Assembly (NCBI RefSeq): GCF_003334385.1
Contig: NZ_QOWN01000121.1
Origin: Escherichia coli
Lineage (GTDB): Bacteria > Pseudomonadota > Gammaproteobacteria > Enterobacterales > Enterobacteriaceae
DNA: 1,207 nucleotides
Strand: one strand, 5' to 3'
Made by a program: the position numbers and the translations under genes. How positions within the stretch are numbered: position 1 is the first letter of the stretch; the number at the start of each line of letters is the position of its first letter. The notes under the pieces were generated by a model. It saw nothing but the letters and a program-made list of their open reading frames with translations. It was not told the origin of the DNA and did no database searches. Below are positions 697 to 1,207 of the stretch, piece by piece.

Positions 697-728
697 CTGG
701 TTGTCTGGAGATTCAGGGGGCCAGTCTA
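688..728 (-). repeat. IS2 left terminal inverted repeat (IRL, ~41 bp); element terminus at position 728
   Basis: The minus-strand sequence starting at 728 is TAGACTGGCCCCCTGAATCTCCAGACAACCA..., the characteristic IS2 terminus. The exact inner boundary is taken from the published ~41-bp IRL length, not measured here because the right end is absent. Confidence 0.75.
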
Positions 729-913
729 GTCAGTGATCTACAGCCTGTTGAATAAAACCCCGGATGCTTCCCCCGATTCTGCAAGTAATACTTCGGTTAT
801 TTGCACTATTTTATCCCTGTTGAATTTGGTTAAGCCGGTGCAGACGCGCCGGGAAACGCACACCTGAACCGGCACAATAAAATACAATACAACCCCCTGT
901 TACTGGAGAAATG

Positions 914-945: not shown

Positions 946-1128
946 TTTATTGGTGAGTACTACGTTCCATGGCAGGAGTTCGTCAACTCGGTTGGAAGGC
1001 CATTCCGGCAGTACGCTCAGGATATGGCGCAGATACGCTTCCGGATCGATACCGTTCAGACGGCAGGTGCCGATCAGCCCGTACAACAGTGCTCCACGCT
1101 CGCCGCCGTGATCGCTGCCAAAGAACAT
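943..1128 (-). pseudogene. IS66-family transposase (TnpC-like), C-terminal 61-codon fragment
   Basis: ORF 943..1128(-) translates to MFFGSDHGGERGALLYGLIGTCRLNGIDPEAYLRHILSVLPEWPSNRVDELLPWNVVLTNK. This matches the conserved IS66 transposase C-terminus pattern (WLFAGSD.GGERAA..YSLIGTCKLNG.DPEAYL...ELLPWN). Full-length proteins are ~500 aa, so about 90% is missing. The frame immediately upstream is closed by stop codons. Confidence 0.6.
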
Positions 1129-1180
1129 AAAGATGGTATGACCTTTATATACTCACTATAGCATTGGTGGGATATTCCAG

Positions 1181-1186
1181 AGGAGG
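1181..1186 (+). promoter_or_regulatory. Strong Shine-Dalgarno AGGAGG, 5 nt upstream of the ATG at 1192
   Basis: Positions 1181-1194 read AGGAGGTCATTATG: a consensus ribosome-binding site with optimal spacing to an ATG. Confidence 0.4.
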
Positions 1187-1191
1187 TCATT

Positions 1192-1207
1192 ATGCATTCG
1201 GAAAATA
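1192..1207 (+). CDS. 5' end of an unidentified ORF (M-H-S-E-N...), running off the window 3' edge
   Basis: ATG at 1192-1194 preceded by AGGAGG, then CAT TCG GAA AAT. Only 5 codons are visible, so no product can be assigned. The call rests entirely on the translation-initiation context. Confidence 0.25.

Follow-up and report, generated by a model that had tools for sequence, protein, structure and literature searches.

The 1,207-nt stretch of Escherichia coli DNA analysed here, denoted as the window, is a stack of insertion sequences (IS), in which a part of IS2 is followed by a short spacer and by the 3' end of an ISEc23-like element of the IS66 family that is interrupted by the left end of ISEc45, an arrangement abbreviated as IS2 / spacer / ISEc23::ISEc45 (Table 1). 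The first segment is assigned to IS2 by its sequence, and plasmid matches over this part (1-727) are annotated as 'IS3-like element IS2 family transposase'. The 185-bp spacer also adjoins ISEc23 in 22 genomes, where it is located near fecE. In strain GE3, ISEc23 sits within the remnant of an IS3-family element. Extending from 914 to 945, an inverted repeat of 10 bp (TAAGCGTCAA...TTGACGCTTA) stretches across the terminal repeat of IS66 and also overlaps the stop codon of tnpC; a terminator-like hairpin on the minus strand (909-893), separate from this repeat, is found just outside the IS66 end. The full arrangement of the window was not found in the complete E. coli genomes or plasmids searched.

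Table 1. Features of the window and their coordinates.
Feature	Position	Strand	Remarks
IS2, left part	1-727	minus	orfA at 272-682; terminus ...CCAGTCTA ending at 727
Spacer	728-912		185 bp, abutted by IS2
3' end of ISEc23-like IS66-family element	913-1132	minus	terminal inverted repeat starts GTAAGCG at 913
Last 61 full codons of tnpC	943-1128	minus	split Phe and Asn codons extend to 1132
Core dinucleotide AG, common to target and IS circle junction	1131-1132		sole overlap of left and right junctions
ISEc45 left end (IS110 family, IS1111 group)	1133-1207	plus	75 of 1,444 bp lie in the window
Terminal extension ATGG (4 nt) between core and subterminal repeat	1133-1136	plus	placed by junction comparison
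Putative extended -10 half, TGgTATGAC	1134-1142	plus	promoter would be complete in the circular form alone
Left subterminal inverted repeat TATGACCTTT	1137-1146	plus	partner AAAGGTCATA near the right IS end, outside the window
Ribosome-binding site AGGAGG of the ISEc45 transposase gene	1181-1186	plus	followed by TCATT and ATG (1192-1194)
ISEc45 DEDD transposase, first five codons (MHSEN)	1192-1207	plus	377 aa in full copies

The IS66-family part is well defined. From 640 to 1132, the window shows 100% nucleotide identity to loci of 22 complete E. coli genomes that are annotated as 'IS66-like element ISEc23 family transposase', and the features of IS66 membership, namely the C-terminal region of TnpC and the terminal inverted repeat GTAAGCG at 913, are present. 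The minus-strand IS66-like ORF of 61 codons that was described in an initial annotation of the window is real. Its product aligns to the C-terminus of the IS66 transposase model NF033517 (positions 348-385 of the 387-position profile) with 33.8 bits, a score that is below the whole-protein cut-off because 61 aa remain. The ATG at 1128-1126 corresponds to an internal Met codon of TnpC, embedded in the motif ...CLGKKNF-M-FFGSDHGG..., and alignment to intact IS682/ISEc23 reveals that IS66 homology runs 4 nt beyond this codon, to 1132. There it ends, as had been claimed, and no frameshifted continuation is present across 1129-1207. The TAG (1158-1156) and TGA (1155-1153) codons that were said to close the IS66 frame exist in the same frame of the minus strand; they lie eight codons upstream of the Met codon, not immediately upstream of the ORF. 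The insertion splits the conserved GKKNFMFFGSD motif between its Asn (AAC) and Phe (TTT) codons, and the ISEc23 transposase gene is thereby interrupted and presumably inactivated.

Beyond this point, the window continues with the left end of ISEc45. Positions 1120-1207 match 915 records, which belong to 869 of the 5,426 complete E. coli genomes; identity reaches 100% in the best of them, and among the matches listed the feature under this part of the window is an 'IS110-like element ISEc45 family transposase' or an IS110-family transposase. Of the transposase gene, 16 nt lie within the window; the full-length features were read from a homologue in strain 504838 (L001), which is 100% identical to 1120-1207. 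In this copy, the full element extends over 1,444 bp (4014-5457, from ATGGTATGACC... to ...AAAGGTCATAAG), with a left end of 59 nt upstream of the ATG and a non-coding region of 251 nt downstream of tnp. The 10-bp inverted repeat formed by TATGACCTTT and AAAGGTCATA is flanked by extensions of 4 nt on the left and of 2 nt plus the core on the right; the left extension reads ATGG in the window and ATGA in some other copies, and relatives share the layout of an A followed by 3 nt. The ATG equivalent to 1192 opens an ORF of 377 aa in L001, in agreement with the gene start that had been proposed at this position, and the AGGAGG-N5-ATG arrangement noted at 1181-1194 is present as well (chance expectation, 0.01 matches per window). 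The L001 protein matches NF033542 ('IS110 family RNA-guided transposase') with 280 bits at a cut-off of 140, contains the domains PF01548 (DEDD_Tnp_IS110, E=3e-15) and PF02371 (E=8e-23), and carries the sequence GLVPGEYSSG, fitting the motif GL-P----SG of the C-terminal IS116/IS110/IS902 domain. Of its first 103 residues, 102 agree with those of the ISfinder ISEc45 protein as given in the supplement of a paper, and the codons MHSEN of the window are identical to its start. As judged from these profile and sequence matches, the gene starting at 1192 is that of the ISEc45 transposase. ISEc45 is an already known, catalogued element, and its nested insertion into a known IS is ordinary; it has been listed as a member of the IS1111 group with a predicted bridge RNA in its right end (Durrant et al., PMC11208160).

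The two junctions of the element were defined by alignment with intact IS682/ISEc23 and read CATAA-AG-ATGG... on the left and ...CATAAG-AG-TTTTTC on the right. The uninterrupted IS682/ISEc23 site (...GAACATAA-AG-TTTTTCTTTCC...) contains one copy of AG and otherwise differs by the absence of the element alone. AG is also the core at both junctions in those relatives whose junctions are readable, and beyond this shared 2-nt core no target duplication was found at the ISEc45 junctions. In five copies (L001, L002, L016, L017, and L018), IS66 tnpC resumes directly after an element of 1,444-1,446 bp. Natural empty sites are provided by GE3 and 21 other genomes, which harbor an uninterrupted ISEc23 at the same chromosomal locus, an island adjoining fecE. 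By these alignments, the junction in the window is a nested insertion of ISEc45 and not a deletion. It is highly probable that ISEc45 inserted into an ISEc23-like tnpC between the Asn and Phe codons of GKKN|F-MFFGSDHGG, by RNA-guided recombination at the AG core.

Insertion of ISEc45 follows a pronounced site preference. At least four different IS66-family backgrounds carry the element at one and the same tnpC position (KKN|F/Y), and an IS66 3' end adjoins its left end in 887 of the 915 matching records. Left flank and core read CATAA-AG in the window, L001, L018, and L002 (the flanks of the latter show ~79% protein identity to IS682), CACGT-AG in L014, L016, and L017 (ISEc43), CATGT-AG in L015, and TATGT-TG in L012. 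The target site is CACGTAATTTTTCTT for the ISEc43 type and CATAAAGTTTTTCTT for the ISEc23 type. Megablast queries of 80 nt representing the CATAA and CACGT types match 736 and 762 records, respectively, numbers that are uninformative as counts of flank types because both queries cross-match. In FORC_069 (NZ_CP023061.1, ~866.9-869.1 kb), an ISEc23-type and an ISEc43-type left flank lie within ~2 kb, which suggests adjacent IS66 copies, each with an ISEc45.

Two peculiarities of the core were encountered among these sites. The core of intact ISEc43 is AA (CACGT-AA-TTTTT; L025, 140-200), and the interrupted ISEc43 copies (ISEc43::ISEc45; L016 and L017) show AG at the left and AA at the right junction. 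This asymmetry fits the pattern expected from a 2-nt heteroduplex after strand exchange, with the top-strand lineage inherited. An allele of IS682 tnpC, CATAA-AGAG-TTTTT (L003, 2501-2688, SCU-104), has an extra AG at the insertion core (corresponding to 1129-1132 of the window) that frameshifts tnpC; up to 34 records are at least 99% identical to it. Since the right end of ISEc45 finishes ...AAGAG, this allele could be the scar of an excision in a slipped register, or else an unrelated 2-nt duplication. A deletion via CATAA microhomology was rejected as its origin, as the predicted product CATAAGAG differs from the observed sequence CATAAAGAG.

Regarding the mechanism, ISEc45 is supposed to move in the form of a circle that joins its right and left ends (...GGTCATAAG-AG-ATGGTATGACC...). 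The circle junction would create a promoter, composed of TTGACA from the right end, 17 nt, and TGgTATGAC at the start of the left end. A reconstructed TTGACA-N17-TATGAC architecture is found at the junctions of ISEc45 and of 5/9 relatives, and in the integrated form no complete sigma-70 promoter is present upstream of the gene; the reconstruction and the incomplete integrated promoter fit a junction promoter of the ISEc11 type. The resulting transcript would include both the transposase gene and the 251 nt of non-coding sequence downstream of it; the latter is predicted to fold as a bridge/seekRNA that contains two internal loops. Of these, loop 1 would provide the right and left target guides, and loop 2 the left donor guide and a short right donor guide. 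The DEDD transposase, with this RNA as its guide, would then catalyse recombination between the circle and the site in IS66 tnpC, at the AG core.

The putative guide RNA was characterized by comparison with 11 relatives from alpha-proteobacterial plasmids (45-53% amino-acid identity), giving 12 regions with that of ISEc45. The ISEc45 non-coding region folds with -55.6 kcal/mol (z = -5.5 vs shuffled versions). Upon individual folding, each of the 12 regions forms two loops and a small conserved hairpin, enclosed by a long closing stem whose sequence is unrelated among the elements. RNAalifold applied to a MAFFT alignment reveals compensatory changes in 6/10 consensus pairs of the inner helices; the closing stem, for which the individual folds provide the support, is absent from this consensus of the 12 regions because its sequence and length vary among the elements. 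No Rfam family was matched by the full element together with its flanks (E<=1). From these folds, we infer that the 251-nt region probably represents a structured guide RNA of the bridge/seekRNA type.

The target is A/T-rich and partly palindromic, and for this reason a k-mer and wobble search of the ISEc45 non-coding region against target and donor gives numerous 6-8-mers that are ambiguous. The guide positions were placed after lining up the homologous regions from the relatives. The left donor guide (AUAAGAG in ISEc45) is located directly 3' of the conserved hairpin and has the same bases as the right IS end (CATAAG) and the core in 12/12 elements, whereby its three variable bases (AAG, CGG, GAG, or CAG) covary exactly with the right IS end. 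The left target guide is found on the 3' side of the first loop, ends with AG-A, and corresponds to left flank, core, and first IS base (CACGUAG(A) in ISEc45). Proceeding outward from the core, its match is contiguous in each of the 11 elements whose left junction is readable, with a mean identity of 3.3/5 flank bases compared with 1.5/5 for non-cognate pairings. On the 5' side of the same loop, just before the stem, the right target guide is complementary to core and right flank in most relatives, as exemplified by GCAUCGCU with AG-CGATGC (L019) and ACACGCU with AG-CGTGT (L007). In ISEc45 it may tentatively be assigned to AAAAAGAAUU, which would pair with AG/AA-TTTTTCTT; the right-guide assignments of this element are tentative because of G-U/G-T wobbles, one mismatch, and low-complexity sequence. 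The right donor guide comprises 4-5 nt and its placement is insecure.

When the relatives with 45-53% amino-acid identity were checked for insertion into IS66 tnpC, none was found there. L019, L023, and L024, from plasmids of Mesorhizobium, Bradyrhizobium, and Methylocystis (45-50% aa identity), are inserted inside the IS66 terminal inverted repeat (GTA-AG|CG...). IS66 tnpA and tnpB follow, and the guide segments GUAAG and ...CGCU fit the terminal-repeat site. The ISEc45 clade therefore targets IS66 elements at a second place, and it seems to live on IS66 elements, the enterobacterial target being a coding motif of tnpC and the alpha-proteobacterial one the terminal repeat. Two further relatives exhibit unusual right ends. 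In L021 (~2170-2480), a tandem duplication comprises the right end together with part of the guide-RNA region, and in L022, the right end is directly followed by the first bases of a left end (AG-ACCGT). Both arrangements look like relics of tandem or circle-junction forms.

The left target guide does not fit all occupied sites equally well. CACGUAG (L001, 5283-5290) matches intact ISEc43 (CACGT-AA-TTTTT) at 5/5 flank positions, with ...AAUU as another perfect partner, whereas it matches CATAA-AG of the window (1124-1132) at 2/5 flank positions, with all three core-proximal positions mismatched. CATAA-AG sites hold ISEc45 at four independent loci, and the CACGTAG segment is identical in 5/5 full-length copies examined, including three in CATAA sites. 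Because of this mismatch between guide and flank, RNA-guided recognition of the exact site in the window is incompletely explained. Possible reasons are a loose left half-site, pairing in a shifted register (UAGAAAG vs CATAAAG, with a contiguous AA-AG), or spread through recombination between IS66 copies. It is conceivable, albeit doubtful, that ISEc45 integrates efficiently into CATAA-AG-TTTTT sites (ISEc23/IS682) despite the core-proximal guide mismatches. If so, natural targeting in the IS1111 group would be driven mainly by the right half-site and the core, or by shifted-register pairing, and the IS682 allele with the extra AG as well as the AG/AA asymmetry of ISEc43 would fit as by-products at the tandem-AG right end. 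As a side observation, the guide misfit at the ISEc23 site could inform rules of off-target tolerance for bridge/seekRNA recombinases.

In the window alone, IS66 homology just stops and other DNA follows, which led the initial annotation to consider a deletion or rearrangement at ~1129-1145 that places unrelated DNA beside an IS66 remnant. A sharp junction of this kind does exist, precisely at 1132|1133, but it is the left boundary of ISEc45 and not the product of a deletion or rearrangement. The DNA beyond it is a discrete element with subterminal inverted repeats that occurs in 869 genomes; in the full copies inspected, the remainder of tnpC comes after it, and the empty sites differ by the exact absence of this element alone. 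A deletion is thus extremely improbable and, as far as the alignments go, already refuted for this element type. The gene at 1192 had likewise been viewed as a candidate non-IS gene, i.e. cargo or a passenger of a larger mobile region, a notion favored by its strong ribosome-binding site and by its being the sole gene in view that belongs neither to IS2 nor to IS66. The HMM profile search with the L001 product, read from the ATG equivalent to 1192, returned an IS110 transposase instead, and with the family assignment to the ISEc45 DEDD transposase (NF033542, PF01548, PF02371) the probability of a cargo gene becomes practically nil.

The remaining alternatives accept ISEc45 as the inserted element and concern its history at this locus. 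Arrival by homologous recombination or gene conversion, or mobilization in trans of an already interrupted ISEc23, would require no de novo insertion here and would sidestep the poor fit of the left target guide. Many genomes harbor several ISEc23/IS682 copies, and positions 900-1207 are 99-100% identical to junctions elsewhere. Against this, CATAA-AG is occupied in two or more strongly differing IS66 backgrounds: the flanks of L002 share no more than ~79% protein identity with IS682, and therefore direct insertion into CATAA-AG must have taken place at least once per background. The immediate flanks in the window are, moreover, of the ISEc23 type up to the junction, and a recombinational origin is regarded as rather unlikely. 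ISEc45 could also be present as a decayed fragment, with the ATG at 1192 heading a pseudogene, since 4/11 related copies inspected are truncated or frameshifted; in L012-L015 this occurs soon after the start. These four copies are 90-95% identical and have the ATGA left end, whereas positions 1120-1207 of the window are 100% identical to intact copies such as L001, and decay is regarded as improbable. The preferred reading remains the nested, RNA-guided insertion of ISEc45 into the tnpC gene of ISEc23.

For annotation, this means that the region consists of IS2 / spacer / ISEc23::ISEc45, with no cargo gene and a disrupted ISEc23 transposase. ISEc45 in ISEc23 constitutes a clean natural example of an RNA-guided IS parasitising another IS family, and the comparative data appear to place the guide segments of the ISEc45 RNA.

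With respect to known systems, the left end in the window is 100% identical to annotated copies of ISEc45 (ISfinder), and no difference is detectable in its 75 bp besides the ATGG/ATGA variation. A close counterpart is ISEc11, whose seekRNA originates from the downstream non-coding region, co-purifies with the transposase, and is needed for circle formation and targeted insertion, as demonstrated by experiments on ISEc11 and other members of the group (Siddiquee et al., 2024, PMC11187229). ISEc45 resembles ISEc11 in its size of ~1.44 kb, the short left end, the subterminal inverted repeats, the terminal extensions, and the downstream guide-RNA region, which is a predicted one in ISEc45. Insertion without target duplication is common to both, as is a circle-junction promoter, putative in the case of ISEc45. 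They differ in the target, which is GTGAAAATACTG for ISEc11, and in the transposase (339 aa vs 377 aa in ISEc45). The seekRNA of ISEc11 carries its top-strand match on the 5' side of the bottom-strand one (Siddiquee et al., 2024, PMC11187229), an order that is also predicted for ISEc45. IS621 (Durrant et al., 2024, PMC11208160) likewise combines a DEDD recombinase with a structured RNA that has target- and donor-binding loops, each of which pairs with both strands around a shared 2-nt core; the ISEc45 core reads CT on the opposite strand. Unlike in ISEc45, the RNA of IS621 is encoded in the left end, the subterminal repeats are very short, and the guide order per loop is reversed, with the bottom-strand guide 5'. 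IS1111-group elements located inside other mobile elements are comparable to L019, L023, and L024, whereas ISEc45 targets a coding motif and not a terminal repeat. In this respect it is similar to ISEc21, an RNA-guided IS that targets a conserved coding motif within transposase genes of the IS3 family; ISEc21 belongs to another subgroup (with an upstream non-coding region) and differs from ISEc45 in the targeted IS family and the motif recognized.
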